Of a DNA stretch of 64,000 bases, positions 1 to 64,000 are shown piece by piece. The position numbers were made by a program, and so were the translations under genes. The notes beneath the pieces are model-generated. The model was not told the origin of the DNA and did no database searches. It saw nothing but the letters and a program-made list of their open reading frames with translations. Every line of letters begins with the position of its first letter. Position 1 is the first letter of the stretch. This DNA is from Mobula hypostoma (taxonomy: Eukaryota): NCBI RefSeq assembly GCF_963921235.1, contig NC_086108.1, positions 48,238,001 through 48,302,000 of the forward strand, written 5' to 3'.

Positions 1-2
1 GC

Positions 3-38
3 AGTCGACGTTTCAGGCCGAGACCCTTCGTCAGGACT
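3..38 (-). ncRNA. Minimal type-I hammerhead ribozyme motif (intact core) in PLE 3' UTR
   Basis: Minus strand reads AGTC-CTGACGA-AGG GTCTCGG CCT-GAAA-CG-TC-GACT: stem I AGTC/GACT, CUGANGA and GAAA boxes, stem II AGG/CCT, minimal palindromic stem III (ACGT), UC cleavage site. Confidence 0.8.
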
Positions 39-331
39 AACTGAAGGAAGAGTGAGTAAGGGATTTGAAAGCTGGAGGGGGAGGGGGAGATGCAAAATGA
101 TAGGAGAAGACAGGAGGGGGAGGGATAGAGCCGAGAGCTGGACAGGTGATAGGCAAAAGGGGATACGAGAGGATCATGGGACAGGAGGCCTAGGGAGAAA
201 GGCGGGGGGGGGGTGACCCAGAGGATGGGCAAGAGGTATATTCAGAGGGACAGAGGGAGAAAAAGGAGAGTGAGAGAAAGAATGTGTGCATAAAAATGAG
301 TAACAGCTGGGGTACGAGGGGGAGGTGGGGC

Positions 332-3076
332 CTAGCGGAAGTTAGAAAAGTCAATGTTCATGCCATCAGGTTGGAGGCTACCCAGACGGAATATAAGGTG
401 TTGTTCCTCCAACCTGAGTGTGGCTTCATCTTTACAGTAGAGGAGGCCGTGGATAGACATGTCAGAATGGGAATGGGATGTGGAATTAAAATGTGTGGCC
501 ACTGGGAGATCCTGCTTTCTCTGGCGGACAGAGCGTAGATGTTCAGCAAAGCGGTCTCCCAGTCTGCGTCGGGTCTCACCAATATATAAAAGGCCACATC
601 GGGAGCACCAGACGCAGTAAATCACCCCAGTCGACTCACAGGTGAAGTGATGCCTCACCTGGAAGGACTGTTTGGGGCCCTGAATGGTGGTAAGGGAGGA
701 AGTGTAAGGGCATGTGTAGCACTTGTTCCGCTTACACGGATAAGTGCCAGGAGGGAGATCAGTGGGGAGGGATGGGGGGGACGAATGGACAAGGGAGTTG
801 TGTAGGGAGCGATCCCTGCGGAATGCAGAGAGAAGGGGGGAGGGAAAGATGTGCTTAGTGGTGGGATCCCGTTGGAGGTGGCGGAAGTTACGGAGAATAA
901 TATGTTGGACCCGGAGGCTGGTGGGGTGGTAGGTGAGGACCAGGGGAACCCTATTCCTAGTGGGGTGGTGGGAGGATGGAGTGAGAGCAGATGTACGTGA
1001 AATGGAGGAGATGCGTTTAAGAGCAGAGTTGATAGTGGAGGAAGGGAAGCCCCTTTCTTTAAAAAATGAAGACATCTCCCTCATCCTAGAATGAAAAGCC
1101 TCATCCTGAGAGCAGATGCGGCGGAGACGGAGGAATTGCGAGAAGGGGATGGCGTTTTTGCAAGAGACAGGGTGAGAAGAGGAATAGTCCAGATAGCTGT
1201 GAGAGTCAGTAGGCTTATAGTAGATATCAGTGGATAAGCTGTCTCCAGAGACAGAGACAGAAAGATCTAGAAAGGGGAGGGAGGTGTCGGAAATAGACCA
1301 GGTAAACTTGAGGGCAGGGTGAAAGTTGGAGGCAAAGTTAATAAAGTCAACGAGTTCTGCATGCGTGCAGGAAGCAGCGCCAATGCAGTCGTCGATATAG
1401 CGAAGGAAAAGTGGGGGACAGATACCAGAATAGGCACGGAACATAGATTGTTCCACAAACCCAACAAAAAGGCAGGCATAGCTAGGACCCATTCGGGTGC
1501 CCATAGCTACACCTTTAGTTTGGAGGAAATGGGAGGAGCAAAAGGAGAAATTATTAAGAGTAAGGACTAATTCCGCTAGACGGAGCAGAGTGGTGGTAGA
1601 GGGGAACTGATTAGGTCTGGAATCCAAAAAGAAGCGTAGAGCTTTGAGACCTTCCTGATGGGGGATAGAAGTATATAAGGACTGGACGTCCATGGTGAAA
1701 ATAAAGCGGTGGGGGCCAGGGAACTTAAAATCATCGAAAAGTTTAAGAGCGTGAGAAGTGTCACGAACATAGGTCGGAAGGGATTGAACAAGGGGTGATA
1801 AAACAGTGTCGAGGTATGCAGAAACGAGTTCGGTGGGGCAGGAGCAAGCTGAGACAATAGGTCGGCCAGGACAGGCAGGTTTGTGGATCTTGGGTAGGAG
1901 GTAGAAACGGGAAGTGCGGGGTGTGGGAACTATAAGGTTGGTAGCAGTGGATGGGAGATCCCCTGAGCGGATAAAGTCGTTGATAGTGTGGGAGACAATG
2001 GCCTGGTGCTCCTTGGTGGGGTCACGATCGAGGGGTAAATAAGAGGAGGTATCCGCGAGTTGTCGCTGTGCCTCGGCAAGGTAGAGGTCAGTACGCCAGA
2101 CTACAACAGCACCCCCTTTATCAGCGGGTTTAATAATAAGGTTAGGATTAGTGCGGAAGGAGTGGAGAGCAGAGCGTTCCGAAGGAGTGAGGTTGGAATG
2201 GGGACAAGGTGCGGTGAAGTCGAGACGGTTGATGTCCCGTCGGCAGCTGGCAATAAAGAGATCCAGAGCAGGCAGAAGACCAGAGCGGAGTGTCCATGAA
2301 GAAGAGGAGGGTTGAAGACGGGAGAAGGGGTCATCGGTGGGGGTGGAAGAGTCCTTGCCGAAGAAGTAGGCTCGGAGACGGAGACGGCGGAAGAAAAGTT
2401 CCGCATCGTGGCGAACACGGAACTCGCTGAGGTGTGGGCGAAGGGGGACAAACGTGAGGCCCTTACTGAGGACAGAGCGTTCTGCCTCCGACAGTTGAAG
2501 GTCGGAGGGGATGGTAAAGACCCGGCACGGATGAGAGCTGGGATCAGAGGGGGGAGGGGGGAGGCTGGGGGTGTCAATGGAGAGGGGAGGGTTGGGGTGA
2601 GAGGAAGATGGAGCCTCTGAGGGCCCAGGAGTTGACGGTGGGATCTGAGGAAGACGGGGTTGCAGAGTGGTGGTGGGGGAAGGGGAGACGGGAGTCACAA
2701 CAGCAGCACATAAAGACCCGGCCTGGAGTTCAAGGCTGGAGTCGCAGTTGGTGGTTGCGTAATCACTTCGAATGTGTCCATGGTCGTTGCTGGAGTCCAG
2801 GTTTTGAATATGTCCTGAGGTGTTGGAGCCGCCGAGATCAATGGTAGGTGCCGCAATTGAAAGTTCATGCCTGCTAGCGTCGGGGCCGGCAGGCTCTGGA
2901 GTCCGTAGATGTAAGATCTTGCGATCTTTGCCTAACATGACAAAGTCAAAAAAACGGCGATTGCAGGCGTGGATCCGACGGAGGATGAAATACTGGGTAG
3001 GACCATTACAGAAGGCGAAGAAAGTGTCCCGAAGGTGTGGAAGGGTCTGGGATAGGGACACCAAGTACCTCCTCAT
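332..3076 (-). CDS. PLE polyprotein: reverse transcriptase + Cys-rich linker + GIY-YIG endonuclease
   Basis: Motifs KPADKGG, YLLPKIHK, GRPIVS, DVQSLYTSIP, QTKGVAMGT, RYIDD, FLD, CKRNKCYTC, VIYC..CSRC..YIGET..R..EH. The frame stays open upstream to 3223 (LRRQLTPVGFRIRF...), so the true N-terminus is truncated at the junction. Confidence 0.95.
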   Translation of the reverse strand: MRRYLVSLSQTLPHLRDTFFAFCNGPTQYFILRRIHACNRRFFDFVMLGKDRKILHLRTPEPAGPDASRHELSIAAPTIDLGGSNTSGHIQNLDSSNDHGHIRSDYATTNCDSSLELQAGSLCAAVVTPVSPSPTTTLQPRLPQIPPSTPGPSEAPSSSHPNPPLSIDTPSLPPPPSDPSSHPCRVFTIPSDLQLSEAERSVLSKGLTFVPLRPHLSEFRVRHDAELFFRRLRLRAYFFGKDSSTPTDDPFSRLQPSSSSWTLRSGLLPALDLFIASCRRDINRLDFTAPCPHSNLTPSERSALHSFRTNPNLIIKPADKGGAVVVWRTDLYLAEAQRQLADTSSYLPLDRDPTKEHQAIVSHTINDFIRSGDLPSTATNLIVPTPRTSRFYLLPKIHKPACPGRPIVSACSCPTELVSAYLDTVLSPLVQSLPTYVRDTSHALKLFDDFKFPGPHRFIFTMDVQSLYTSIPHQEGLKALRFFLDSRPNQFPSTTTLLRLAELVLTLNNFSFCSSHFLQTKGVAMGTRMGPSYACLFVGFVEQSMFRAYSGICPPLFLRYIDDCIGAASCTHAELVDFINFASNFHPALKFTWSISDTSLPFLDLSVSVSGDSLSTDIYYKPTDSHSYLDYSSSHPVSCKNAIPFSQFLRLRRICSQDEAFHSRMREMSSFFKERGFPSSTINSALKRISSISRTSALTPSSHHPTRNRVPLVLTYHPTSLRVQHIILRNFRHLQRDPTTKHIFPSPLLSAFRRDRSLHNSLVHSSPPSLPTDLPPGTYPCKRNKCYTCPYTSSLTTIQGPKQSFQVRHHFTCESTGVIYCVWCSRCGLLYIGETRRRLGDRFAEHLRSVRQRKQDLPVATHFNSTSHSHSDMSIHGLLYCKDEATLRLEEQHLIFRLGSLQPDGMNIDFSNFR

Positions 3077-3233
3077 GGCGGAGAGCGTCGCCTTCAGAGC
3101 TTGACGGGAGAAGCGGCGAGAGGCAGAGTCAATAAAATGTGAGTACCTGGGATCCTCAGAAGGTCCAAATTGAGAGGCTTGGAAACGAATCCTAAAGCCA
3201 ACTGGAGTAAGTTGGCGACGGAGGCGCCTACCA

Positions 3234-5726
3234 TTGATCTCGGCGGCTCCAACACCTCAGGACATATTCAACGACCATGGACACATTCGAAGTGATTACG
3301 CAACCACCAACTGCGACTCCAGCCTTGAACTCCAGGCCGGGTCTTTATGTGCTGCTGTTGTGACTCCCGTCTCCCCTTCCCCCACCACCACTCTGCAACC
3401 CCGTCTTCCTCAGATCCCACCGTCAACTCCTGGGCCCTCAGAGGCTCCATCTTCCTCTCACCCCAACCCTCCCCTCTCCATTGACACCCCCAGCCTCCCC
3501 CCTCCCCCCTCTGATCCCAGCTCTCATCCGTGCCGGGTCTTTACCATCCCCTCCGACCTTCAACTGTCGGAGGCAGAACGCTCTGTCCTCAGTAAGGGCC
3601 TCACGTTTGTCCCCCTTCGCCCACACCTCAGCGAGTTCCGTGTTCGCCACGATGCGGAACTTTTCTTCCGCCGTCTCCGTCTCCGAGCCTACTTCTTCGG
3701 CAAGGACTCTTCCACCCCCACCGATGACCCCTTCTCCCGTCTTCAACCCTCCTCTTCTTCATGGACACTCCGCTCTGGTCTTCTGCCTGCTCTGGATCTC
3801 TTTATTGCCAGCTGCCGACGGGACATCAACCGTCTCGACTTCACCGCACCTTGTCCCCATTCCAACCTCACTCCTTCGGAACGCTCTGCTCTCCACTCCT
3901 TCCGCACTAATCCTAACCTTATTATTAAACCCGCTGATAAAGGGGGTGCTGTTGTAGTCTGGCGTACTGACCTCTACCTTGCCGAGGCACAGCGACAACT
4001 CGCGGATACCTCCTCTTATTTACCCCTCGATCGTGACCCCACCAAGGAGCACCAGGCCATTGTCTCCCACACTATCAACGACTTTATCCGCTCAGGGGAT
4101 CTCCCATCCACTGCTACCAACCTTATAGTTCCCACACCCCGCACTTCCCGTTTCTACCTCCTACCCAAGATCCACAAACCTGCCTGTCCTGGCCGACCTA
4201 TTGTCTCAGCTTGCTCCTGCCCCACCGAACTCGTTTCTGCATACCTCGACACTGTTTTATCACCCCTTGTTCAATCCCTTCCGACCTATGTTCGTGACAC
4301 TTCTCACGCTTTTAAACTTTTCAATGATTTTAAGTTCCCTGGCCCCCACTGCTTTATTTTCACCATGGATGTCCAGTCCTTATATACTTCCATCCCCCAT
4401 CAGGAAGGTCTCAAAGCTCTACGCTTCCTTTTGGATTCCAGACCTAATCAGTTCCCCTCTACCACCACTCTGCTCCGTCTAGCGGAATTAGTCCTTACTC
4501 TTAATAATTTCTCCTTTTGCTCCTCCCATTTCTTCCAAACTAAAGGTGTAGCCATGGGCACCCGAATGGGTCCTAGCTATGCCTGCCTTTTTGTTGGGTT
4601 TGTGGAACAATCTATGTTCCGTGCCTATTCTGGTATCTGTCCCCCACTTTTCCTTCGCTATATCGACGACTGCATTGGCGCTGCTTCCTGCATGCATGCA
4701 GAACTCGTTGACTTTATTAACTTTGCCTCCAACTTTCACCCTGCCCTCAAGTTTACCTGGTCTATTTCCGACACCTCCCTCCCCTTTCTAGATCTTTCTG
4801 TCTCTGTCTCTGGAGACAGCTTATCCACTGATATCTACTATAAGCCTACTGACTCTCACAGCTATCTGGACTATTCCTCTTCTCACCCTGTCCCTTGCAA
4901 AAACGCCATCCCCTTCTCGCAATTCCTCCGTCTCCGCCGCATCTGCTCTCAGGATGAGGCTTTTCATTCTAGGACGAGGGAGATGTCTTCATTTTTTAAA
5001 GAAAGGGGCTTCCCTTCCTCCACTATCAACTCTGCTCTTAAACGCATCTCCTCCATTTCACGTACATCTGCTCTCACTCCATCCTCCCACCACCCCACTA
5101 GGAATAGGGTTCCCCTGGTCCTCACCTACCACCCCACCAGCCTCCGGGTCCAACATATTATTCTCCGTAACTTCCGCCACCTCCAACGGGATCCCACCAC
5201 TAAGCACATCTTTCCCTCCCCCCTTCTCTCTGCATTCCGCAGGGATCGCTCCCTACACAACTCCCTTGTCCATTCGTCCCCCCCATCCCTCCCCACTGAT
5301 CTCCCTCCTGGCACTTATCCGTGTAAGCGGAACAAGTGCTACACATGCCCTTACACTTCCTCCCTTACCACCATTCAGGGCCCCAAACAGTCCTTCCAGG
5401 TGAGGCATCACTTCACCTGTGAGTCGACTGGGGTGATATACTGCGTCCGGTGCTCCCGATGTGGCCTTTTATATATTGGTGAGACCCGACGCAGACTGGG
5501 AGACCGCTTTGCTGAACATCTACGCTCTGTCCGCCAGAGAAAGCAGGATCTCCCAGTGGCCACACATTTTAATTCCACATCCCATTCCCATTCTGACATG
5601 TCTATCCATGGCCTCCTCTACTGTAAAGATGAAGCCACACTCAGGTTGGAGGAACAACACCTTATATTCCGTCTTGGTAGCCTCCAACCTGATGGCATGA
5701 ACATTGACTTCTCTAACTTCCGCTAG
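3234..5726 (+). CDS. PLE polyprotein (RT + GIY-YIG), N-terminally truncated second copy
   Basis: Same motifs as 332..3076, with 9 amino-acid differences, all in the C-terminal part. The first ~11 residues are out of frame because of the 17-bp deletion, and the TTG start is probably not real. Confidence 0.9.
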   Translation: MISAAPTPQDIFNDHGHIRSDYATTNCDSSLELQAGSLCAAVVTPVSPSPTTTLQPRLPQIPPSTPGPSEAPSSSHPNPPLSIDTPSLPPPPSDPSSHPCRVFTIPSDLQLSEAERSVLSKGLTFVPLRPHLSEFRVRHDAELFFRRLRLRAYFFGKDSSTPTDDPFSRLQPSSSSWTLRSGLLPALDLFIASCRRDINRLDFTAPCPHSNLTPSERSALHSFRTNPNLIIKPADKGGAVVVWRTDLYLAEAQRQLADTSSYLPLDRDPTKEHQAIVSHTINDFIRSGDLPSTATNLIVPTPRTSRFYLLPKIHKPACPGRPIVSACSCPTELVSAYLDTVLSPLVQSLPTYVRDTSHAFKLFNDFKFPGPHCFIFTMDVQSLYTSIPHQEGLKALRFLLDSRPNQFPSTTTLLRLAELVLTLNNFSFCSSHFFQTKGVAMGTRMGPSYACLFVGFVEQSMFRAYSGICPPLFLRYIDDCIGAASCMHAELVDFINFASNFHPALKFTWSISDTSLPFLDLSVSVSGDSLSTDIYYKPTDSHSYLDYSSSHPVPCKNAIPFSQFLRLRRICSQDEAFHSRTREMSSFFKERGFPSSTINSALKRISSISRTSALTPSSHHPTRNRVPLVLTYHPTSLRVQHIILRNFRHLQRDPTTKHIFPSPLLSAFRRDRSLHNSLVHSSPPSLPTDLPPGTYPCKRNKCYTCPYTSSLTTIQGPKQSFQVRHHFTCESTGVIYCVRCSRCGLLYIGETRRRLGDRFAEHLRSVRQRKQDLPVATHFNSTSHSHSDMSIHGLLYCKDEATLRLEEQHLIFRLGSLQPDGMNIDFSNFR

Positions 5727-6020
5727 GCCCCACCTCCCCCTCGTACCCCAGCTGTTACTCATTTTTATGCACACATTCTTTCTCTCACTCTCCTTTTTCT
5801 CCCTCTGTCCCTCTGAATATACCTCTTGCCCATCCTCTGGGTCACCCTCCCCCCCGTCTTTCTCCCTAGGCCTCCTGTCCCATGATCCTCTCGTATCCCC
5901 TTTTGCCTATCACCTGTCCAGCTCTCGGCTCTATCCCTCCCCCTCCTGTCTTCTCCTATCATTTTGCATCTCCCCCTCCCCCTCCAGCTTTCAAATCCCT
6001 TACTCACTCTTCCTTCAGTT

Positions 6021-6056
6021 AGTCCTGACAAAGGGTCTCGGCCTGAAACGTCGACT
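6021..6056 (+). ncRNA. Hammerhead ribozyme motif, right-arm copy with G8>A core mutation
   Basis: AGTC-CTGACAA-AGGGTCTCGGCCT-GAAA-CGTC-GACT; differs from the left copy only at 6030 (CpG transition). Confidence 0.7.
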
Positions 6057-7100
6057 GCACCTCTTCCTACAGATGCTGCTTGGCCTGCTGCGTTCACCAG
6101 CAACTTTGATGTATGTTGCTTGATCCTCATGTCTAAACCTCTTTGTTCAATAATAAAACAGGACCCCTAAGTTCCTGGCAATCTGAGGAATCAGCAGTTT
6201 TGTTTTGAATTTTTTTTTATTAGCATTCCTCCATTTAGATATTTGCCTAGAAGAAACCCATCCTCCATGGCAGGAAATCCCCATTCACTCTCGGATTAGC
6301 TTTATGACATTTACATGTGGCACAGAGCAGATATTCCAATTTCCTCTGCCAGTGGCCAAGAGCAGAACATATCTGAGGCTTTGAGCAACGGAAATCTTTC
6401 CCCTGCTTTTTAATACTTCTGCCAAGAGAATAGACTAGATCGTAGTTACATTCTGATCCATAATCAAGGATTATGATGAGATGATCACAATAAAGGTAAA
6501 GGCTACTGTTCGATATGCATCAGCTGTCCGAACAAATTTGGTATGAATGTTATCTAGATCACTCAATTACATTTTTGAAGGGGATTTTACTGTTTCATTC
6601 AGATGCAAAATAGACAGAATATCCTCTTTTTTTTCCAGCATTGATGTTATGTAAAAATTGGGCTGAAACTACTTTTGCTGGTAGTTTTGTAAAGAAGTGT
6701 CAGCATGCAACTCTTTTGCGATCTGCACTCTGTAGGCGATACCATGGTGTAGCGTGGATGTCTGAGACCAGCTGAAGGTGGGCATCATTGCATACGCACC
6801 CCGCTCTGCCACTGGACTGAACACTGAATATCTACACCAGTCGTGTTTCACTCTGGGGTTAAGTCAGTTTTGCTATTCCCTTAAAATGTTGGGGATGTGA
6901 AAGGGTTAATGCCAAGTGTTCGTTATCTAATTTACTTAATAATGCCACTTTCAATGAATTAATATCACTTAAATGTATTTATAAAAAATTTATTACTGAC
7001 TTTAAAAAAAACCTTTAAGCTTATTTTAATTCTTTCAAGCTGTTTTTAAATGTCTTAGAACATCAGTGACATTTAAAAACTATTCAATGGCTTTTCAGAA

Positions 7101-9990: not shown

Positions 9991-10116
9991 GGAGTAGGTG
10001 AAGCTGAGCCAGATGTACATAGTGAAGTAAAGGGATAAGGAAAACATGGGAAAAAGCTGTCAATGTAATTCTTCCAAGTGTAAGTTATTCCCAAAATTGT
10101 AAACTGCTTATCTACT

Positions 10117-10213
10117 TCAACACATTCTAAATGCTGGAGAAACTCAGCAGGTCAGGCAGTATACATGGAAACAAACAGTCGAGGTTTCAGGCTGCGAATC
10201 TTCCTCAGGACTG
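10117..10213 (-). mobile_element. Degenerate PLE 3'-end remnant with decayed hammerhead
   Basis: aatgctggagaaactcagcaggtcaggcag...cagtcgaggtttcaggc...tcaggactg aligns to 1-40 and 36530-36625. Confidence 0.75.
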
Positions 10214-10367
10214 CTTATCGACTTCTGTGCATCATCATTATTTTCTGGTGGCAATTCACTTCCCACCACAGAACTGCAACTCTGATATCTTACTGTGGAG
10301 AAGCGTAAATCTGTGAGCGAATCAGTTGGTTCTATGTCAATGCCACAAGTTTTCTGCCCTCCTCTAG

Positions 10368-11085: not shown

Positions 11086-11910
11086 AGACCACAAGACATG
11101 GGAAAACAATTAGGCCAATTATTTTCCCTCTCAATCCCTTTCTTCTGCCTTCAACCTTTAACCTTTGACACCCTTACTCATCAAGAACCTGTGAACTTGT
11201 GTTGTAAGTATACCCTATGGCATGGCATCTGTGGCAATGAATTCCAGAGAGTCGCCTGCCTCTAGCTACAGAAATTCCTTCTCACCCTTGTGATTGTATT
11301 CAGAGCCTCTGCTCTCTTGTTCTAGACTTGTCCACTATTTGAAACATCCTCTGCACATCCACTCTATCCAGGCCTTTCAATATTCCGTAGATTTCAAGAG
11401 ATCCAAACTCCAGTGATTACAATCCCAGGGACACCACATGCTCCTCATATGTTAAACTTTTCATTTCCTGAATCATTCTTGTGAACCTCGTCTGGACCAT
11501 CTCCAATTCCAGCACCCTTTCTTAGATAAGGGGCTGAAAACTGCTCACAGTACTGTAAGTGCCATCTGACCAGTGCCTTATAAAGCCTTAACATTCTGTC
11601 CTTGTTTTTGTAATCTAGTCCTCTCAAAGTGAATGCTAACATTGCATTTGCCTTCTTCACCACCAACTCAACTTGCAAGTTACCCTTTAGCGAATCCTGC
11701 ATGAGGACTTCCAAGTCCCTTTGTACATCTGATTTCTGAATTTTTTCCCCATTTAGAAAATAGTTTACCCCTTTAGTCCTTCTACCAAAGTGCATGACCA
11801 TACACTTCCCTACACTATATTCCATCTACCAGATCTTTGCTCTGCCTATCTTTGTATCATTTGCAAACTTGGCACAAAGCCATCAGTTCTGTTATCCAGA
11901 TCATCAACAT
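11086..11910 (-). mobile_element. CR1-type LINE, 3' fragment
   Basis: ORF 11445..11825 (KCMVMHFG...LYKALVR..LQYC); CR1 tail near 11086. Confidence 0.85.
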
Positions 11911-11911
11911 A

Positions 11912-12982
11912 TCGAGTAGAAAAAAAGGGGGCCTTTTCTGGTTTGCTGCTGGTGACTAAAATTGTTCCACAAGTGTCAGTGTTGGGACCACTTCTTTTCG
12001 TGTTAGATGTCAATGATTTAGATGACCGAATTGATGGTTTTGTGGCCAAATTTGCAGATGATATGAAGATAGGTGGAGGGGCAGCTAGTGTTGAGGAAAC
12101 AGGGAGTCTGCAAAAAGACTTAGACAGGTTAGGAGATGGGCAAAGAAGTGGCAGTTGAAATATTATGTAGGGAAATGTAATGTCATGCACTTTGGTAGAC
12201 GGAATAAAGGCATAGACTATTTTCTAAACAGGCAGAAAATTCAGAAATCAGAGGTGCAAAGGGACTTGGGTGTCCTCATGTAGGATTCCCCAAAGGTTAA
12301 CTTGCAGGTTGAGTTGGTTGAAAGGAAGCCAAATGTAACGTTAGCATTCATTTTGAGAAGATTAGAATATAAAAGCAAAGATGTAATGCTGACACTTTAT
12401 AAAGCATTGGTCAGACTGCACTTGGAGTATGTGAGCAGTTTTAGGCTCCTTATCTAAGAAAAGATATGTTTGCATTGGAGAGGGTCCAGAGAAGGTTCAC
12501 AAAAATGCTTCCAGGAATGAAAGGGTTAACACATGAGGAGCATTTGATGGCTCTGGGCCTGTACTCCCTGCAGTTTTGAAGAATGAGGGGAGATCACATT
12601 GAAACCTATTGAATATTGAAAGGCCTAGATAGAGTGGATGCAGAGAGGATGTTTCCAAAAGTGGGGGAGTCTAGAACCAGAGGGCACAGTCTCAGAATAG
12701 AGGTATGTCCATTTAGAACAGAGATGAGGCTGAATTTCTTTTGCCAGAAGGTGGTGAATCTGTAGAATTGATTGCCACAGACAGCTGTGGAAGTCAAGTC
12801 ATTGAGTATATTTAAAGCAGAAGTTGATAGGCTCCTGGTTAGTCATGGCGTCGAAGGTTATGGGGAGAAAGCAGGAGAATGGGGTTGAGAGGGATAATAA
12901 ATTAGCCATGATGGAATGGCAGAGCAGACTGGATGAGCTAAATAGCCTAATTCTGCTCCTATGTCTTATAGTCTTGTGGTTT
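11912..12982 (+). mobile_element. CR1-type LINE, 3' fragment
   Basis: VPQVSVLGPLLF...KFADD RT motifs; CR1 tail at 12945-12980. Confidence 0.88.
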
Positions 12983-19186: not shown

Positions 19187-19977
19187 ACAAGGTCTCTTCT
19201 TTGTATGTTAGGTTTAAAATGGCTTCTTTGTTATGTTAAATGCTGGGAAACTCTCTAGCTAGACATTTGCTTGGGTTAATACAGATAGCAGGTGCTATTA
19301 GCCAATGGGTATTCATGTTATTATTTCTTGGGGTGATAATGCTGTCTCATATGACTGGGAACGGAGGTTTTTGGGGGGAGTCGGAGGAGAGACGGGGAGG
19401 ACGGTGGACGTGTGGGGTTTTTTGGTGGGGAGTCAGAGGAGAGACAAGGAGGACGACGGACGTGCGAAAAGGCTCCAGTCGATCATTCGGGGTGGTCCTG
19501 AGAGCCGATGGGGTCCGGGTGGTCCCGAGCTGCGAGCCGACAGTGTCCGGGCGGCCCCAAGCCATGAGCCGACGGGGTCTGGGCGGTCCCGAGCCGCGAG
19601 CCGACGGGGTCCGGGCGGTCCCGAGCCCAGAATCGACAGGGTCCGGGTGGTCCCGAGCTGCGAGTCGACAGGGTCCGGGTGGTCGCCAAGAATTTCTGAG
19701 CTCCAACTTGTGCACAAAGAACTTGGACTTTGATAAGTCTGGTGCTTTTTTTCCTCCATTACTTCCTTTTCTGTATCAAACTTATATTAATTTCATAGAC
19801 GTAGTAATATCTATAAAGTGTACCTGGTAAAAGGTACTGTGGGTGTTGGCTGATGATTGATGTTTGGGATTGATTCGGGTGGCTGTGGTACAGCAACCGA
19901 CCAAGCGGGAAGCATCCAGGCAGGCGCCGGGCGGGATTTCCCCTAGACACATACGAGCCAATATAGTGGAGCGTATA
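19187..19977. mobile_element. Probable solo LTR with internal minisatellite
   Basis: ~790-bp compositionally distinct block (CCAAT-like motifs, G-rich centre, CpG-rich repeat) bounded by (a)gtat(a). Canonical TG..CA ends are not clearly present. Confidence 0.4.
19502..19684. repeat. 32-bp GC/CpG-rich minisatellite, ~5.7 copies
   Basis: Unit ~gagccgacggggtccgggcggtcccgagccgc starting at 19502, 19534, 19566, 19598, 19630 and 19662. Confidence 0.92.
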
Positions 19978-29841: not shown

Positions 29842-31458
29842 CAGTGCCTTTAAAAAGTATTCACCCCCTTGAAAGCTTTCATGTTTAATTGTTTTACAAC
29901 ATTGAATCACAGTGGATTTAATTTGGCGCTTTTGACACTGATAAACAGAAAAGACTCTTTCATGTCAAAGTGAAAACAAATTTCTACAAATTGGTCTAAG
30001 TTTATTACAAGTATTAAACACAAAATAATTGATTGCATAATTACTCACCCCCTTCAAGTCAGTATTTAGTAGACGCACCTTTGGCAGCAATTACAGCCTA
30101 GAGTCTGTGTGGATAGGTCTCTATCAGCTTTGCACATCTGGGCACTGCAATTTTTCCCCATTCTTCTTTGCAAAGCTGCTCAAGCTGTGTAAGCATGGGG
30201 TTGTGAGTGAACAGCCTTTTCAAGTCTTGCCACGAATTCTCAATTGGATTGAGGCCTGGACTCTGACTTAGCCACTCCAGGACATTAATTTTGTTGTTTT
30301 TAAGTTAATCCTGTGTAGCTGTGTCTTTATGCTTGGAGTCATTATCTTGCTGGAAAACATATCTTCTCCCAAGTTGTAGTTCTCTTGCAGACACCATCAG
30401 ATTTTCCTTGAGGATTTCCTTGTATTTTGCTGCATTCATTTTACCCTCCACAAGTCTTCCAGGGCCTGCTGCAGTGAAGCAGCCCCACAGCATGATGCAG
30501 CCACCACCATGCTTCGTGGTAAGGATGGTGTGTTTTTGATGATGTGCGGTGTTTGGCTTATGCCAAACATAGTGTTCAGTCTGATGGCCAATTTTGGTTT
30601 AATCAGACCATAGATCCTTCTTCCAGCTGACTTCAGAGTCTCCCACATGTGTTCTGGCAAACTCTAGCCAAGATTTCATGTGAGTTTTTTTTCAACAGTG
30701 GCTTTCTCTTTGCCACTCTCCCATAAAACTGTGACTTGTGTAGCAGCCGGGCAACAGTTGTATGCGCAGTCTGTCCCATCTCAGCCACTGAAGCTTGTAA
30801 CTGCTCCAGAGCTGTCACAGGTCTCTTGGTGGCCTCCCTCACTAGTCCCCCTCTTACAGGTCACTCAGTGTTTGAGGATGGACTACTCTAGGCAGACTTA
30901 CAGCTGTGCCATATTGTTTCCATTTCTTGATGATTGACTTCACTGTACTCCAAGGGATATTCAGTGACTTGGAGATTTTCTTGTATCTATCTCCTGACTA
31001 ATGTTTCTCAAGAACCTTCTCACGGAGTTGCTTGGAGTGTTCTTTGTCTTCATGGTGTAGATTTTCCCAGGATACTAACTCACCACCAGTTGGACCTGCC
31101 AGATACAGGTGTATTTTCACTACAATCATTTGAAACACCTTGACTGCACACTGGTCTCCACAAACAGATCTCCATTTAACTAATTATGTGACTTCTATAA
31201 CCAATTGGCTGTACCAGTGATGATTTGGTATGTCATGTTAAAGGACGTGAATACTGATGTAATCAATTATTTTGTGTTTTATATTTGTAATTAATTTCGA
31301 TCACTCTGTAGAGATCTGTTTTTACTTTGACACAAAAGAGTCTCTTTCTGTTGATTAGTGTCAAAAAAGCCATATTAGATCCACTGTGATTCAATGTTGT
31401 ACAACAATAAAATATGAAAATTTCCAAGGGGCGGAGTGAATACTTTTTATAGACACTA
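29842..31458 (-). mobile_element. Tc1/mariner transposon with ~210-bp IR/DR-type TIRs; degenerate transposase
   Basis: TA|cagtgcctttaaaaagtattcacccc ... gtgaatactttttatagacact. Transposase remnants MLWGCF, FQQDND.KH, RVAKRKPLL. Confidence 0.9.
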
Positions 31459-31529
31459 TTATTGTGCATTTACTTTTTGTTTCTCTGGATCACTGAATCA
31501 TAAGAATACAAGAAAATAGGATTCAGAAG

Positions 31530-31660
31530 ATAAAAGAGATTCTACAGATGCTCAAAATCATGAACAATGCACACAAAATACTGAAGGAACTCAGCAGATC
31601 TTGCAGCATCTGTGGCGAGAGACAAACATCATTGTTTCAGGCTGAGACCTTTCATCTGTA
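31530..31660 (-). mobile_element. Degenerate PLE 3'-end remnant
   Basis: attctacagatgct...cacacaaaatactgaaggaactcagcag...gtttcaggctgagacctttcatc aligns to 36494-36625. Confidence 0.7.
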
Positions 31661-32006
31661 CCAGTATGGGATCCAGATTAGGCCTTCAGGCCCCTCAAAC
31701 CTGCCCCAATATTCAGAGTGATCATGCTGATCTATGCTCGTTTCAGCTCCTCTTCTCTTTCAGTTCCCAATAACCCTCAGTTCCCAATCTTTCAAATATT
31801 TCTCTGTCTCCACCTTGTATATCTAATGGCTTTTCTTCCTCCAAGCTCATGGGCAAACAATTTCAGAGAATTATCCCGCTCCACATTTCTCCAGACACTG
31901 ACTGACATGCAAGTCTGATGATTGTTTTCCTTCACCGTCCAACCTTGTACACTGTGAGAGGTGGCAGATTGCAAGACGTATCGGTGCCTTCTCTATCCTG
32001 CATGTA

Positions 32007-34995: not shown

Positions 34996-36089
34996 GTAAT
35001 TTGAGATTAAACAGAGGTCTGAATTATGGGATTTCTTATATTTTACTATGAAGTGTGCTATGTACAGCTGTGGATAGTGAGCAAGAATATGAGGCAAATA
35101 AACATAGCTGTCATATTTTCGTTTGAGTAATAGTCATTATTATTGACATCACTGATTTTTTAATCTTTAAATTCTTTACAGATTAGGAAATGACCAGTAA
35201 ATCTTTTCATTGTTTTCCCTTGCTTTTCATAGTATTGCAACCGCACTGCTGACTGGGATGAGTATTTTGAACTTCTGTGTGTACTTCCCCTCAGTGCATG
35301 CCCACATGGTCCTTAAGTTGAATAGCTTTGATATGCGTTAATGAAAACCACAACACAGAAGAGCCGATCGACAATATGAATTATTAATGTTCAAAGAACT
35401 TTTCAAATTGTAAGGAAGTACTGTGGAGCTCATCTTAATCAGTTTACAAGATGATACATTTTCAAATTAATGATCACAGGCTTTGCTTGATATACTCATT
35501 TATTTATTTTTGAATATCCAACATTTCCCAGTGTTCAATTGTTTGCACATTCTTTTGTTTCTCTGATTTCTTCTTGACCAAATTTGTAAGATTTCTCCAT
35601 TCTATAAGTTGATTTCATAATGGGTAGCAAATCCTTCGGCCCAATTCCTTGTTGTGATTAGAGTACATACAAGTGTTTCATCCCTCCTTTCCCCTTGTTT
35701 GGCTGTCTTTCTTGTCTTTCAGTTTTCAACCATTAAGTAGGCAGATGATAGAAACGTTGACCTGTCTGTTTTTCATGCATACAGTGACATGTAAGGCATT
35801 TCCAACATTTTCTGGTTTACTGTTTGCATGATTTAAAAAACAACAAAAGATCTGCTGTTTAGATGCATTAGCTGCTTTCAAATCAAGAAACAAAAGAGAA
35901 ATCTGGACAAGCTCCAAATCATGGAATCTTTCCATTTGGTCAGTACAGAAAAAACATCAGAGCAGTTGTTACAATTCTATGTTGTTCAACTTATGTTGGT
36001 TTAGTCACTGTCTATATTGTTATCTTAACATATTTCTGTATACTTAAGATGTTGATGATTTTTTAATGGGAATATACTTTGTATTCCAG

Positions 36090-36217
36090 ACACACCCAAC
36101 TTTCCACTGGATCAATGAAGATTATTGAAACCAGACTGTCTGATTCTGGAACATACCAGTGTGTTGCTACAAACATTGCTGGGAATGTTACACAATACAT
36201 TAGGTTAAGTGTGCATG
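36090..36217 (+). CDS. HMCN1: Hemicentin-1 exon, phase 2>1
   Basis: ttccag|ACAC...CATG|gtatgt; HTQLSTGSMKIIETRLSDSGTYQCVATNIAGNVTQYIRLSVH; 128 bp. Confidence 0.93.
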
Positions 36218-36493
36218 GTATGTTTCCATTGCAGTGCAAATCAATAATGACATCAGTTCTTTCTTCAGATGTCAAAAACTCAAACTCTAGGGACTAGCTT
36301 CTCAGAGAACTGCTAATCACTGTTTAAACAATACCAGCTCAACAAGCTTTAATGTTTACTAATTGCTCACAAAGGAGTCCCATAAAACTATGCATCTTGC
36401 AGAAAATTTGAGGTTCAATCAGCACTGAAAATTCACACGCATGCACACTTACGCACAAACACACATAAACAAACACAACTGGTAGAAATTCAA

Positions 36494-37028
36494 ACAAGAG
36501 AAAATCTGTCGATGCTGGACATCCGAGAAACACACACAAAATGCTGGAGGAACTCAGCAGGCCAGGCAGCATCTATGGAAAAGAGTACAGTTGACGTTTT
36601 GGGCAGAGACCTTTCATCAGGACTGGAAAAAAAAGAGATTAAGAAGGTGGAGCGATGGGAGGAAGAAAGACAAGGTGACGGGTAAAACAGGAGGGTGGGG
36701 TGGAGAGGGGGTGCAGGGAATTTGATTGGTGAAAGAGATACAGGGCTGAAAAAGGGAATCTGATAGGAGAGCCCTGTATCTCTATCTCCAGCCCTGTTTC
36801 TCTTTCATCAATCAACCTTCCAGCTCCTTACTTCATCCCTTCCCCACCCACTTCCTGGTTTCACCTGTCACCTTGTCTTTCTTCCTCTCCTCCCCCCATC
36901 TTCTTACTTCGACTCCTCGTTTTTTTTCTCCAGACTTGCCGAAGGGTCTCGGCCCGAAACGTCGACTGTACTCTTTTCCATAGATGCTGCCCGGCCTGCT
37001 GAGTTCCTCCAGCATTTTGTGTGTGTTG
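36494..37028. mobile_element. Palindromic non-autonomous PLE insertion (two inverted 3' UTRs) with 13-bp TSD
   Basis: TSD ggtagaaattcaa at 36481-36493 and 37029-37041. Arms are homologous to the PLE 3' UTR at 5900-6120. Decayed hammerheads at 36589-36624 (-) and 36932-36967 (+). Confidence 0.88.
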
Positions 37029-37249
37029 GGTAGAAATTCAAGACTTGATCATGCATTTAGTTTCAAAATCAATTCATTCAAAAATTTCCTTGCCCATTTT
37101 TTATGCTTTCTTACAGAGTGTACTGAGGTTTGCACTCTCATTTCTATAATGAAATAATTTTTTTATAGCATCCTGAAACAAATCTTTGAATTTAATTACA
37201 AACATCTATTTCAACTGCATCTACAATCACTTGTAGAAATTACTCAAAC

Positions 37250-37980
37250 CTATTTTAAATTGCAGTTAAGACAGGGTGAAGGAGTAGGGTGTAAATATAA
37301 TGTGATAGTTTGAGGATTGGTTAATGAATAGAGAAAAGAGATAAGGAATAAAGAGATGAGACCATGGCTTTATGTGGATCCATTTGTCCACAATGTACAT
37401 TAATAATTTGAATGAGGGGATTATGTGATATGTTTAAATTTGCTGATAATACAAAGTTAGATGGCAGTGTGGGCTATAAGAGGATACAGAGAGATTTCAT
37501 GAAAATGTAGGCAAAGACATAGCTGTTGGAATATAATGTGGAAGAATGCAAGGCATCAATTTTTATGCTAAAATTCCAAATAATTGAGTGTTTTTTTAAA
37601 GTTGTGGAAGACTCAAAGGTGTTGGTGTTCAGGGGGATGTTGGGTGGCCAAGTATACTTGTGAAGGTTAGCAAGTAGATATAGTAAGCAGTTTGAAAGAC
37701 AAACACTATGTTGGACTCCATTGCCAGAGGACTTGAGTAGAAATATTTTGCTTCAATTGTGTTGTAACCCTAGTGAAACTAAATTTATGTTATTGTACTT
37801 AGTCTGGTCTCTTCATTTGCTTGGCATTACAAAGAGAGATGGATGGATTTTTAGATGTTACTGGAATTGAGGAAATTGGCGATAGAGCAGAAAAGTTGTA
37901 GTGCGGTTAAAGGTCAGCCCTGATCTTACTGAATAGTCATGCAAGCCTGAGAGGCTGAGTGGCCTGTTTCTTTTAATCTT
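37250..37980 (+). mobile_element. Highly degenerate CR1 fragment
   Basis: aaatttgctgataatacaaag (KFAD.TK) and a CR1-like tail. Confidence 0.55.
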
Positions 37981-54087: not shown

Positions 54088-57000
54088 TTACATTAAATGA
54101 AAATATTGAATAAAAGATCTCCAAGTCTGTTCAAATTTAAATGAGGAGTCATAAAGATTGCTTCTAATTTTCTCCAGATTCAAGCATAATATCGTCTGAG
54201 AAAACCAAAAAAAGGTAGTTGGAGCATTAAGCTCTTTCCAATGTTGTAAGATACATCTTTTCGCCATTAAAGTAAGAAATGCAATCATTCTACGGGCTGA
54301 AGGGGAGAGATTACTGGAAATTTTAGGTAGTCCAAAGATAGCAGTAATAGGGTGAGGAGAGATATCTATATTCAATACCTTGGAGATAATATTAAAAATG
54401 TCTCTCCAAAAAGTTTCCAAAGTAGGGCAAGACCAAAACATATGAGTTAAAGAGGCTATCTGCCCCGGACATCTATCACAAAAAGGATTAATATGAGAAT
54501 AAAAGCGCGCTAACTTATCTTTGGACATATGTGCTCTATGAACAACTTTAAATTGAATTAGGGAATGTTTAACACAGATAGAGGAAGTATTGACTAATTG
54601 TAAAATCTGCCCCCAGTCATCCACGGAAATGGTAAACCCCAATCCCTGTTCCCAATCTACCCTAATCTTATCAAATGGAGCTTTCCTAAGTTTCATAATA
54701 ATATTATAAATCATAGCCGATGCACCTTTCTGACATGGATTAAGGTTGATTATAGTATCTAAAATGTATGTAGGAGGAAGCATTGGAAAGGAAGAAAGTA
54801 TAGTACTTAGGAAATTTCTAACTTGTAGATATCTAAAAAAATGTATTCTTGATAAGTTATATTTATTAGATAATTGTTCAAAAGACATAAGGGAACCATC
54901 TAAAAATAAATCCAAAAACCGTGAAATACCCTTAGTCTTCCAAATTTGAAAAGCACGATCCATAAAAGAGGGAGGAAAAAATATGTTACCTAAAATAGGA
55001 ATCGCTAACCCAAATTGATTAAGATCAAAAAATTTTCTGAATTGAAACCAAATACGCAAGGTATATTTAACTATCGGGTTAGACACCTGTTTAAGGCGTT
55101 TCCAATCAAAAGGAAGAGAGGAACCTAAAATAGAGCCAAGTGTAAAACCCTGAACAGATTGTAATTCCAATGCTACCCATTTAGGAATGGATAGTATATC
55201 CTGGTCCAATAACCAGAATTTCATATGTCGAATATTAATTGCCCAATAATAAAATCTAAAGTTAGGTAATGCTAAGCCTCCATCTCTCTTAGCTTTCTGT
55301 AAATGTGTTTTACCCAGTTTCGGGTTTTTATTCTGCCAAATAAATGAAGAAATTTTAGAGTCGACTTTGTCAAAAAAAGATTTTGGAACAAAGATTGGTA
55401 ATGCCTGAAATATATATAAAAATTTTGGCAAAAAAAACATCTTAACTGCATTAATACGACCAATCAAAGTTAAATATAAAGGAAACCATTTAGATGAAAG
55501 TTGAGTAATATGGTCTATTAATGGTAAAAAGTTAGTCTTAAATAAATCTTTGTATTTACAAGTAATTTTAATCCCAAGATATGAAAAATAATTATTAATA
55601 AATTTAAATGGAAATTTATAATATAAGGGAAGTTGTTTATTAATCGGAAAGAGTTCACTCTTACTAAGATTTAATTTATAACCTGAAAAAAGACCAAATT
55701 GTGCTAATAACTCTAAAACAGCCGGGATGGATTTTTGAGGATTAGAAATATATAAAAGTAAATCATCAGCATAGAGTGATAATTTATGGGACTTTAAGCC
55801 CCGAGTTTCCCAGTAATATTTGGAGATTCTCGAATGGCAATTGCAAGAGGTTCTAATGCAATATCAAATAATAAGGGACTAAGAGGACAACTTTGTCGAG
55901 TACCTCGAAAAAGAGGGAAAAAAGGTGAACTTAAAGAGTTAGTACGAACCGAGCCCACAGGAGAATAATATAAGAGTTTAATCCAGGATATAAATTCCGA
56001 GCTAGAATTAAACATTTCAAGCACCTTAAATAAATAAGGCCATTCTACTCTATCAAAAGCTTTCTCGGCATCTAAAGAGATAACACACTCAGGAACATTT
56101 TGTGAGGGAGTATAAACGATATTTAACAGTGGACGAATATTATAAAAAGAGTAACGACCTTTAATAAAACCCGTTTGGTCTTCCGAAATAATAGAGGGAA
56201 GTACTTTTTCTAATCTATTTGCTAATAACTTAGAAAAAACTTTAGAATCAACATTTAATAAAGATATTGGTCTATAAGATGCACATTGAGCAGGATCTTT
56301 ATCCTTCTTTAATATTAAAGAGATTGACGCTCTATTAAAAGATTCAGGAAGTTTACCAAGTTTCAATGAAGCCTCAAAAACCCTACAGAGCCAAGGGATT
56401 AATGAACGAGCAAAACATTTATAAAATTCTACGGTAAGCCCATCAGGGCCAGGAGCTTTCCCCAAATTCATAGAGAAAATAACATTCTTAATCTCATCCA
56501 TGGTAATGGAAGTATCTAACATAGAAGCCATATCCTGTGAAATCTCAGGGAAGTCTAAATTATCTAAAAAATCATTCATATATTTAGAATCTCGAGGAGA
56601 CTCTGCTTGATATAAGGAAGAGTAAAAATCACAGAAGGTTTGATTAATCCCCACATGATCAAGTATCAGTCGATCATTTTGGTTATAAATCTGATTAATT
56701 TGAGATTTAGCATAATTAGACTTCAATTGATTAGCCAACAGTTTGACAATTTTGTCACTGTGTACATAAAATTCACTTCTTGTTTTCTTTAATTGGTTTA
56801 CAATCGAGGACGAGAGTAATAAACTGTGTTCCATTTGGAGTTCAGTTCTTTGTTTATATAACTCCTCAGAAGGAGCTATAACATATTTCTTATCAATTTC
56901 CTTAATCTTGTCCACAATTACCAACTCCTCCTGCTTCTGCTTCTTCCTCAAAGCAGCAGAATACGAGATAATCTGACCACGAATATAAGCTTTAAAAGTG

Positions 57001-57863
57001 TCCCAAAGAGTGTTAACAGAAATATCCTCTGTATGGTTAATTGTAAAAAAAAGATCAATCTGTTCATTCATAAAGTTAACAAAGTCCGAGTCCTGAAGCA
57101 ACAACAAATTAAAACGCCATTGTCTATTATTTTGTATGTTGGCCAGAATTTTAATAGAAAGCTTAAGTGGAGCATGATCCGAAATGGTTATAGAATCATA
57201 ATCACATTTAATCACTGAGGAAATAAGACGAGAATCAATAAAGAAATAATCAATTCTTGAATAGGAATGATGAACATATGAAAAAAAAGAAAAATCTTTT
57301 TCCTGAGGATGCAAAAAACGCCAAATGTCCGTCGACCCAGAATCAGAAAGGAATGAATTAATCAAAGTTGCAGATTTATTAGGTAAGGTCCGTAAAGGAG
57401 CCGAATGGTCCAAAGCTGGAGACAAACAGGTATTAAGATCTCCGCCCCAGATCAATGAAAACTCATTCAAATTCGGAAACTGATTAAATAATGATTTATA
57501 AAATTCCGGACAGTCCATATTAGGAGCATAAACATTAACCAAAACTACTTTTTTATTAAATAGTAAACCACTAACCAATAGAAATCTACCATTCGGATCA
57601 GAAATAATATCATGTTGTATAAAAGTAACTGAGGAGTCTATAAAAATAGAGATGCCTCGAATCTTAGCATTGGAGTTCGAATGAAACTGTTGACCCTTCC
57701 AGAATTTAAAAAAACGTAGTCTGTCCCCCCTCCGCACATGGGTCTCTTGTAAGAATAAAATTTGTGCTTTAAGTCTCCGGAACACTTTAAAAACTTTTTT
57801 CCTTTTAATAGGATGATTAAGACCATTAGTATTCCAGGAGACAAAATTAATAATAGACTCCAT
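54088..57863 (-). pseudogene. L1 ORF2p (APE + RT + CCHC) with a single 1-bp frameshift at ~55808
   Basis: SWNTNGLN, LQETH, GDLN, RIDY, SDH, YRPISLLN, DAEKAFD, CPLSP. After the frameshift, HKLSLYADD... reads open into ORF 54088..55467 (CDRC...HMFWSC). Confidence 0.9.
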
Positions 57864-58577
57864 AAACCCTAAAGTCAACCCACAACAAGGAGGATTGACG
57901 ATAGGCTCGACCCACGAACCCGGAGAGGGAACAGAACATACAAGAGATACCGGGAAGAAGAACACAACCAATACTTCAATAATGTATATAGCCCAAGAAG
58001 AAAGAAACTAAAACGTGAAGCCCCTCCCACCACCCCCCAGCCCATAACCTCAAGGCTAAATCTAACGCAGACCAGCCCGAAAGAAGCAAGCACTAAAACT
58101 ACCCCCATGACTTCCGGTATACGCTCCCTAAAAAAAAAGTGTAAATATAAAAAAGATCAGCTGATTATAAAACAGTAAAAGAATAAAAAAAAAGTTAACT
58201 CAATTAAAATAAACACATAACAGAATAAAAGCCAGAAAATATATAAAAAAACCACAATAAACCCCAGACCCATGAATAAACAGAACAACAAAAAAAATAA
58301 GATTATTAACATAAACTAATTATAAAAACCTACGAAACAAAATAGATTTTAAAAAAAACTACAAAATTTAAGGCCACAAAGGAAATACATAAAATGACAA
58401 TAAGGAAGTAACCACCCAGAATCCCCTGGGAAAAAGAAAGAAATAACGCAGTTAAAAAAAAGTTTAGCAACCATATTAAGTAATCAAAAATAAACTTTTC
58501 TGCCCAAATAAGGCAAAAAAAATTAAGACCGACAAATTCACAGCCTCCAATCAACGGAGATAGTTAAAAAATTACAA

Positions 58578-59441
58578 TTAAGATGTTGAAGGTGAAAATT
58601 GATCCAGATAACTCTGGGCATCCGATGGAGAGTCAAAAAAACGGAGGGCTCCATCCAACGTACAAATCCTTAGACGTGCAGGGTAAAGAAGCGCTGGTCT
58701 TAAATCCATCTTGTAGAGTTCCGACATCACAGATCTGTAACGAACCCGTTGATCCCGGATTGGTTTACTGAAATCTTCCACGAATCGGAACTTAAGATCC
58801 AAAAAATCAATGAAACCTTTAGATCGAACGAATCGAAACAGTTTCTCCTTGTCTTGAAAGTAATGAAACCGTAAAATGACATGTCGAGGTTTATCTGACC
58901 TAAGCGAGTATGATGGAACTCTGTGAACGCGATCCAATAGCGGTGGTTGGTCAGGAAATACAGTAGGAAATGCATCTTTTAAAAGTTGAGAAAAATACTT
59001 CATAGGGTTATCAGATTCAACAGCTTCATGCACCCCGATCATTCGTAGATTCTGCCGTCGCATTCTAGATTCTAAGTCAGAGTTTTTAAAGGTCAAAAAG
59101 TCAAGTTTCTTCTTCATTACATTAATTGTTTCTTCGATTTTCCCCATCTTAAGCTCACTTTGTTGCGTGGATATTTGAAGATCAGATATAGCCGACTGAT
59201 GTTCCGTAATAGATGTTTGTATCTTATTGATTGAATCGGCAATTTTCTGGAAATTAATTGAAATTTCCGCACGAATCAGCTCCGTAACAGAGGTTGAAAT
59301 TTCCCTTTGAATTAACTCCGATATAGCTTTCAAAGTCACCGGTGGTTCAGTCGGAGGGAAATCAATACCTTTCGGTTTAACCGGAGGTTTGCCATCCTTC
59401 CCGTTTTTCCCATTCTTAGACATAGCAGACCTTAAACGCAT
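58578..59441 (-). CDS. L1 ORF1p (coiled coil + RRM + CTD), intact
   Basis: DLESRMRRQNLRMIG, RVHR, PRHV, LLYPARLRI motifs; 287 aa. Confidence 0.9.
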   Translation of the reverse strand: MRLRSAMSKNGKNGKDGKPPVKPKGIDFPPTEPPVTLKAISELIQREISTSVTELIRAEISINFQKIADSINKIQTSITEHQSAISDLQISTQQSELKMGKIEETINVMKKKLDFLTFKNSDLESRMRRQNLRMIGVHEAVESDNPMKYFSQLLKDAFPTVFPDQPPLLDRVHRVPSYSLRSDKPRHVILRFHYFQDKEKLFRFVRSKGFIDFLDLKFRFVEDFSKPIRDQRVRYRSVMSELYKMDLRPALLYPARLRICTLDGALRFFDSPSDAQSYLDQFSPSTS

Positions 59442-59610
59442 CCAGTTATCGAAGAGCCCAATTTATTTCAAAGTATTGTAAAAGTTGATGCCTTAATGGT
59501 TAATTAAAATATAGCTGATCATAAGAAAAAAAACTCAGAGGTAATGGAGCGAGTCAAGAACGCGACTTCACTCCATGAGCGCTACTGGAAGTCCTCCGGA
59601 AATTAATATT

Positions 59611-63658: not shown

Positions 63659-64000
63659 GTGAGTAGACATAGATTTGAAGCAGGGCTGAATATCAGAGAC
63701 TTTCAAAAATATTACACATCATACAGTAATTTAGAAATGAAATACACCAGCTACAGGAAACTTGAAATAAAAGCAGAGAGTGCTTAGAACCTCAGGTAGC
63801 TGCCTGAAATATTCTCCCTGTTTATCACTCAATTGATGCAGCTTGATCTACTGAGCAAATCCACTATTGTCTGTTCTTTTTATTGTGTATCTCATTGTTT
63901 GCATACCTCAATATACCACGGACACTGTTTCCCAGTCTAGCATCACCCTGCAGAATACTGATTCAATCTAATGCTCTTGGTCATCCATTCCAAATACTTG

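Follow-up and report, generated by a model that had tools for sequence, protein, structure and literature searches.

The 535-bp element at positions 36494-37028 of the window (the whole stretch of 64,000 nucleotides that was analysed) consists of two PLE 3' ends lying head-to-head between 13-bp direct copies, and it is almost certainly a single inverted PLE insertion. It represents a dead insertion of an endonuclease-bearing PLE whose two arms are severely truncated; its inverted form is a known one, and the copy appears to have decayed neutrally since then. The difference of 35 nt between its two ends is the known PLE tail. An inverted short PLE insertion of this shape is already in print, and the element is an ordinary member of its class, not a new type of DNA transposon. 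The features of the insertion and of its relatives are collected in Table 1.

Table 1. Positions of the parts of the inverted PLE insertion, of related PLE copies and of the neighbouring host exon in the window.
Feature	Position	Strand	Basis or remark
Young long head-to-head PLE, related subfamily	1-6120		RT, Cys cluster and GIY-YIG; cut by the window edge
Solo tail-less PLE end, ~95 bp	10103-10225	-	16-nt duplication with 1 mismatch; 4 nt overlap the 5' (truncated) end of the element
Solo tailed older PLE end	31516-31677	-	Possible 12-nt duplication with 2 mismatches, weak
Host exon, part of an Ig I-set domain	36090-36217	+	PF07679, E 1.6e-6; GT donor
Left TSD copy, 13 bp	36481-36493		Exact match to 37029-37041
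Left arm, 5'-truncated PLE end, 278 nt with tail	36494-36771	-	Palindrome, PLE homology
PLE tail, 35 nt, left arm only	36494-36528	-	End comparison and family contig consensus
Decayed minimal type I hammerhead	36589-36624	-	G of the GAAA box altered; mismatches in stems I and II; first core box unchanged
Central junction	36770-36809	+	2-nt arm overlap (36770-36771) and 20-nt tandem repeat
Right arm, 5'-truncated PLE end without tail, 259 nt including the duplicate	36770-37028	+	Palindrome, PLE homology
Decayed minimal type I hammerhead	36932-36967	+	Two changes in first core box, one in stem I
Right TSD copy, 13 bp	37029-37041		Exact match to 36481-36493

The TSD copies agree at 13 of 13 positions, neither side can be extended, and the 13-mer occurs twice in the window with both strands counted. 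The chance of a 13-bp match is 4e-8 per given site and about 4e-6 with a slack of 10x10 positions, while random pairs of 40-nt windows at the same spacing shared at least 13 letters in 1 of 3000 cases. An earlier note on this DNA, made from the letters only, had described a 535-bp palindrome within an exact 13-bp TSD, the left arm being about 35 nt longer at its outer end, and both the length and the 35-nt excess were confirmed. The same note regarded the structure as direct evidence of insertion as one unit. The TSD does support a single insertion, but direct evidence would need the empty allele, which was on no contig shown. Moreover, the TSD does not choose among the priming of two cDNAs, fold-back and the later collapse of a longer palindrome. 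The tabulation of the target consensus proposed in the earlier note gave no clear result from the three TSDs and one flank found in the window.

The homology of the arms to the PLE, on which the earlier reading depended, held in the alignment with the end of the young PLE (6020-6117), where 79 and 80 of 100 aligned columns agreed. After the ribozyme the arms carry a polypyrimidine-AG-ATG and a short open frame that runs into the tail, and they are therefore pLTR-type ends. Thus the arms, which had been called PLE 3' UTRs, are indeed PLE ends, but they comprise more than a 3' UTR. The pLTRs of rotifers and of the anole likewise include the ORF start (PMC3846280, PMC11167929). The short frame gave no match to the N-termini of homologs in the 11 of 120 proteins compared. 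The loose contig ends ahead of 36525 and, in reverse orientation, those after 37028 have the tail sequence as their consensus in each of the four sequencing runs used (agreement 0.42-0.56). The tail is the family's own sequence and is carried by other copies. Since it follows 37028 in every run, the point at which the right arm stops is a second, inner end in use elsewhere in the family. This stop point is that of the tail-less copies, the solo copy at 10117 included.

The decayed hammerhead noticed earlier in each arm was found again, with core changes in both. The two motifs (36 nt each) were read by eye against the motif definition of PMC4209133, and no Rfam hammerhead was found in the window at E up to 1. 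Positions 36934 and 36936, which lie in the right hammerhead, differ from the majority of the family contigs; judged from their sequence, both ribozymes are probably dead. At 36580-36588 the arms share one subfamily variant, and many family contigs carry another. The substitution rates of the outer and inner parts of the arms did not differ (p 0.22; p 0.03 with indels). From the letters of the arms as such, an origin from a single template cannot be distinguished from an origin from two.

Complementarity between the arms is 91% over the outer 106 nt and 77% over an inner stretch of 70 nt, and at the outer 60 nt 59 positions match. The 535-nt strand is predicted to fold into one hairpin of -349 kcal/mol (z -24). 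The longest stop-free stretch of the element is 103 codons, and there is no ORF. Of the eight weak Rfam matches in the window that lie at or near the element, six belong to unrelated families, five of them being miRNA precursors on its centre, and all are below the cut-offs. The size, the terminal inverted repeats, the missing ORF and the very high copy number of the arm end would also suit a DNA-transposon MITE that captured PLE sequence. MITEs are short and non-coding with inverted ends and a TSD (PMC8969392), like the present element; unlike them, it has unequal ends, retroelement homology, probably variable centres and no transposase link within the window. Since the outer end of the left arm is 35 nt longer, the two ends are offset and are not inverted copies of each other, which rules out MITE identity in the sense of terminal inverted repeats reaching both ends. 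The arms consist of PLE sequence up to their final base, these ends are also found on both sides of an RT-GIY-YIG ORF and as solo copies, no transposase partner with the same termini was found in the window, and the arms are unlike the Tc1-like inverted repeats at 29843 and 31457. A DNA transposon with captured PLE sequence is thus a most improbable origin. The earlier note had called the element a MITE look-alike made by retrotransposition, and the PLE homology to the last base, the one TSD and the unequal ends agree with it.

The window holds further PLE copies. In the young PLE the arms are 98.7% alike and the centre (3223-3228) is a 6-nt palindromic overlap; its right arm is without 17 nt between short direct repeats (microhomology), 46 nt from the turn (within 3223-3290), and an intact hammerhead was read by eye at window 1-40. 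Its ORF matched RVT_1 (E 5e-5) and GIY-YIG (E 1.3e-3), both below the Pfam cut-offs, and of 8000 sequences scored, 633 were homologs with E 1e-20 or better. A Chiloscyllium protein with 72% came first among them, which makes a cartilaginous fish the most likely host. The Cys cluster of this ORF is at aa 841, between RT (620) and EN (891), and such a cluster stood between RT and EN in 99 of the 99 homologs having both motifs (among 120). A Cys-rich stretch in this place is a mark of Neptune-like PLEs (PMC3846280), and by this criterion the ORF sequence suggests that the PLE at 1-6120 is Neptune-like.

The older remnants reported at 10117 and 31530 were recovered with nhmmer (E 2.5e-26 and 4.9e-26, both having helped to build the profile) and independently with blastn (E 3e-15 and 7e-10). 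No usable second copy of the host repeat around 31530, against which its TSD could be tested, was found in the window. Of the two further sites named as possible, the one at about 63760-63890 received weak support (63794-63868, E 9e-4, 0 of 300 shuffles), and the one at 35740-35870 is doubtful, having no nhmmer match at E up to 10 and a score reached by 1 of 300 shuffles. As palindromes, neither of them convinces (10 and 109 of 500 shuffles). Solo copies, short two-armed copies and long two-armed copies are thus all produced by the family, and every insertion has a 5' junction of its own.

Some other repeats of the window were recorded as well. Two CR1-like LINE fragments lie head-to-head at 11119-12966, with 75% likeness across 762 nt; both come from the 3' part of the RT (aa 216-420 on the minus strand, 173-449 on the plus strand). 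The pair resembles the PLE geometry, though the fragments may also be old insertions that occurred separately. What seems to be the remnant of a true DNA transposon occupies 29843-31457, with inverted repeats of about 215 nt that are 82% alike and 1.18 kb apart, and whose ends we take to be Tc1/mariner-like. On the minus strand, a long element with three largely open frames extends over 54088-59462; it is presumably L1-like, the frames being assumed to correspond to an ORF1-like protein, an endonuclease and an RT. A GC-rich tandem array of five units with a 32-nt period is present at 19501-19682.

At the centre of the 535-bp element, the duplicate described in the earlier note is present at 36771 and 36791, but it is better read as a 20-nt tandem (36770-36789 and 36790-36809). 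Each unit agrees with the left-arm template at 18 of 20 positions. The tandem and the 2-nt overlap of the arms look like a repair scar. On balance, the 535-bp unit would have arisen from two cDNAs at its present size, an origin that we hold to be reasonably probable. In the course of events proposed here, the PLE protein would nick the two target strands 13 bp apart. On the top strand, the 3' end would serve as primer for a tailed cDNA begun at the distal RT start site; on the bottom strand, the 3' end would prime another one, begun at the proximal site, which lies 35 nt more internally. Both cDNAs would pass the uncut hammerhead and stop after about 245-280 nt, microhomology of 2-4 nt would join their free ends, a brief slip or snap-back would leave the 20-nt repeat, and fill-in would give the head-to-head palindrome within the 13-bp TSD. 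Extension of one strand only would give a solo end, such as that at 10117.

In vitro, both strands are cut and extended by the purified PLE protein of the anole, which was modelled as a dimer; its RT starts at two internal sites bounding the tail, and needs neither primer homology nor hammerhead cleavage (PMC11167929). The available text of that work does not show the joining of two cDNAs and does not reconstitute inverted products or TSDs, and the two-cDNA step is borrowed here from this in vitro system of another PLE clade. In favour of two cDNAs, the present centre and that of the young PLE differ, and both show microhomology. The solo of about 95 bp with a duplicated flank at 10117 also supports it, since such a copy means that extreme truncation happens at insertion. 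The subfamily variant common to both arms at 36580-36588 and the joints at other places described below point the same way. Against it, no contig shown has the empty allele, the substitution rates of the arms do not indicate two different templates, the anole ATT cut motif is at neither of the inferred nicks and lies inside the TSD instead, and several joint contigs have a multi-copy depth, as might result if certain centres had been copied whole.

On the right side, a 2-nt match at the turn is followed by 14 nt identical to the left-arm template, as would be expected if a single tailed cDNA (the left arm) had snapped back and copied itself, the endonuclease then resolving the hairpin at the tail boundary so that the second arm is tail-less. 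The likeness of the arms, 98.7% in the young PLE and 59 of the outer 60 positions here, fits such a fold-back too, and the tail is ascribed 'most likely' to EN-mediated resolution in PMC8557442. However, two RT start sites account for the tail in PMC11167929, where extension of both strands was shown as well, and the tail-less solo at 10117 ends at the same point without a hairpin. The inner right arm is also nearer to many family contigs than the left one (depth in run X1 about 7,000 vs 119), a comparison that is neutral if the decay is private. We consider fold-back unlikely.

Palindromes of great length tend to be unstable, and a templated repeat is a sign of repair through microhomology. 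A long palindrome like that at 1-6120, which is present in the same window, could accordingly have been shortened when repair deleted its centre, with the 20-nt repeat as the scar. But very short TSD-flanked insertions exist without a palindrome (10117), and the junction of the young long element has microhomology as well, so such scars form at insertion; a collapse of this kind has little to recommend it.

Contigs from 4 of 24 public sequencing runs (X1, X5, X9 and X10 among them, X9 being possibly an RNA run) were aligned to 36000-37500. In run X1, 158,308 contigs match this region, and the summed depth is 5.2 million on the arm end vs 6.3 on the flank; this ratio gives no copy number. The PLE family of the arms is very large. 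The left junction was bridged with 0 differences in 530 nt in organism A and 4 in 551 nt in organism B, thus the insertion predates their split. At the right junction only 26-28 element letters were present in X1 and X5, below the threshold of 31, and only the left junction was counted as bridged. No contig shown from the four runs joins across an empty site, and the third species is without cover at 36357-36407 and 37071-37121. Scans for further copies of the motif gave none in the viral contigs and none in either of two metagenome contig scans; the one match in genome contigs belongs to a bacterial assembly and was taken as chance.

The earlier note had held that variable junctions would mean de novo formation at each insertion. 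Among the 15 joints shown (of 1535), 8 run elsewhere from the left arm to the right arm on one strand, as would be seen with shorter head-to-head copies that have their centres at different places. Of these 8, three have known fillers (3, 11 and 14 nt), and 5 have unknown letters between the arms; the joints rest on sides of 18-51 nt at 82% likeness. This count leaves out 7 left-to-right rows among the 12 shown in a table without joint type, as well as 5 'opposite strands' joints, which were taken as ordinary single copies matching both arms. These joints point to variable centres, but some of them are at multi-copy depth. Several joint contigs are well above the single-copy flank (657, 361 and 289 vs 44-63 in X5; 283 vs 5-7 in X10), that is, several to about 40 times the flank, and this depth may come from the copying of whole units, from duplication, or from means inflated by repeat words. 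The differing centres favour new formation at each insertion, with some propagation possible.

The multi-copy joints bear on a further explanation, in which a non-autonomous palindromic unit would be transcribed and then inserted again as a whole through the PLE machinery. Some of the joint contigs with other centres occur at multi-copy depth, one of them (36588 to 36997) in all 4 runs, and for the mobilization of a segment no more is needed in cis than the pLTRs on either side of it (PMC3846280). Against it, the centre of the 535-bp copy is absent among the 15 joints (of 1535) and 32 pieces shown, none of which resolves 36770-36809, and the centres seem to differ between copies. The depth in X1 drops from 113,045 to 5,778 across this centre, a weak argument as old sister copies could fall under 82%, and a hairpin of -349 kcal/mol would presumably be a poor RT template. 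For the 535-bp copy we find this explanation quite improbable. The joints concern re-transposition of units at the level of the family and nothing points to it for this copy; that short PLE palindromes of the family re-transpose as units, keeping their centre while gaining new TSDs, is itself a rather distant prospect. The preferred reading of the 535-bp copy remains two primed cDNAs.

Four particular joints deserve mention. Those from 36588 to 36997 (in all four runs) and from 36588 to 37008 have depths far above single copy and mark a candidate duplicated or propagating mini-palindrome. In three DNA-type runs, a joint from 37028 back to 36525 (16, 19 and 2 contigs) places the right-arm end before the beginning of the left arm on a single strand; this suggests copies lying tail-to-tail, or else that the family has inserted into ends of its own. 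The joint from 36587 to 36969 (6, 3 and 4 contigs) is at the 6-bp hammerhead palindrome, a few bases from the predicted cleavage site, and either microhomology or ribozyme cleavage could explain it.

The mechanism of the earlier note is not a new idea: PMC3846280 already contains whole PLE inserts with an inverted pLTR and a 31-bp tail within TSDs of 9-10 bp, as well as the empty allele of one pLTR-framed insert with an 8-bp TSD. An inverted 5'-truncated copy and a tail of 30-40 bp at one end are described as typical of PLEs in PMC8557442. The present element resembles the inverted-pLTR PLEs of the rotifer Adineta (Pen2a_Av and Pen2 scaffold 304; PMC3846280, PMC8557442 Fig. 2) in the inverted 5'-truncated arm, the overlap or microhomology at the junction, the 30-40 bp tail on one end only (35 nt here) and the one TSD round the unit. 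It differs from the Adineta inserts in that no ORF is left, both arms are shorter than 280 nt and the family is vastly more abundant, and its TSD is 13 bp vs 8-10 bp in the rotifer (PMC3846280). In Schistosoma mansoni, dual minimal hammerheads of PLEs are found on opposite strands 100-700 bp apart (PMC4209133), and the two here, also on opposite strands, are 307 bp apart; the TSD, tail and junction described here have no counterpart in the available text on those pairs. With the Poseidon element PAc of Anolis carolinensis it has in common the two ends one tail-length apart, the copying through the hammerhead and the want of primer-template homology at the proximal end, whereas the autonomous relative in the window is Neptune-like by its Cys cluster between RT and EN and PAc belongs to Penelope/Poseidon (PMC11167929). 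Non-LTR retrozymes are likewise non-coding, derived from PLE pLTRs and provided with a type I hammerhead, but they are head-to-tail tandems with intact ribozymes, and this identity was rejected for an element that is head-to-head and decayed and has a TSD (bioRxiv 10.64898/2026.07.22.740005). A search for a named chondrichthyan family or a PLE 'MITE' in mostly open literature without Repbase gave nothing relevant by title.

In the twin priming of L1, both target strands prime cDNA and an inverted, truncated insert inside a TSD is the product. The present element is similar in its inverted, truncated form inside a TSD, and so is the two-strand priming of the proposed mechanism. L1 inversions, however, join two different parts of one RNA and have one 3' end. 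Both arms here cover the same 3' end and start at it, and an inversion of the L1 type was rejected.

The element lies in an intron, 276 bp downstream of the Ig I-set exon (36090-36217) of a host gene that we take to be hemicentin-like. In the right arm, at 36971-36983, the polypyrimidine-AG followed by ATG is on the sense strand of the host gene and may be a cryptic splice acceptor. In the pre-mRNA of the host the 535-nt hairpin would be predicted to form a long double-stranded RNA.

The single 535-bp copy matters little. The class is another matter: the two ends, the TSD and the centre of such a short insertion with two arms all fit into 600 bp, and as the family is very large, a genome-wide table of its many copies could test PLE inversion in vivo. 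Whether inverted PLE insertions come from two primed cDNAs or from fold-back is left unsettled in the available parts of PMC8557442 and PMC11167929. Such copies can be mislabelled by MITE finders and by miRNA-hairpin models. If re-transposition of whole units were true, it would represent a non-autonomous class that combines the shape of a MITE with the chemistry of a retrotransposon.
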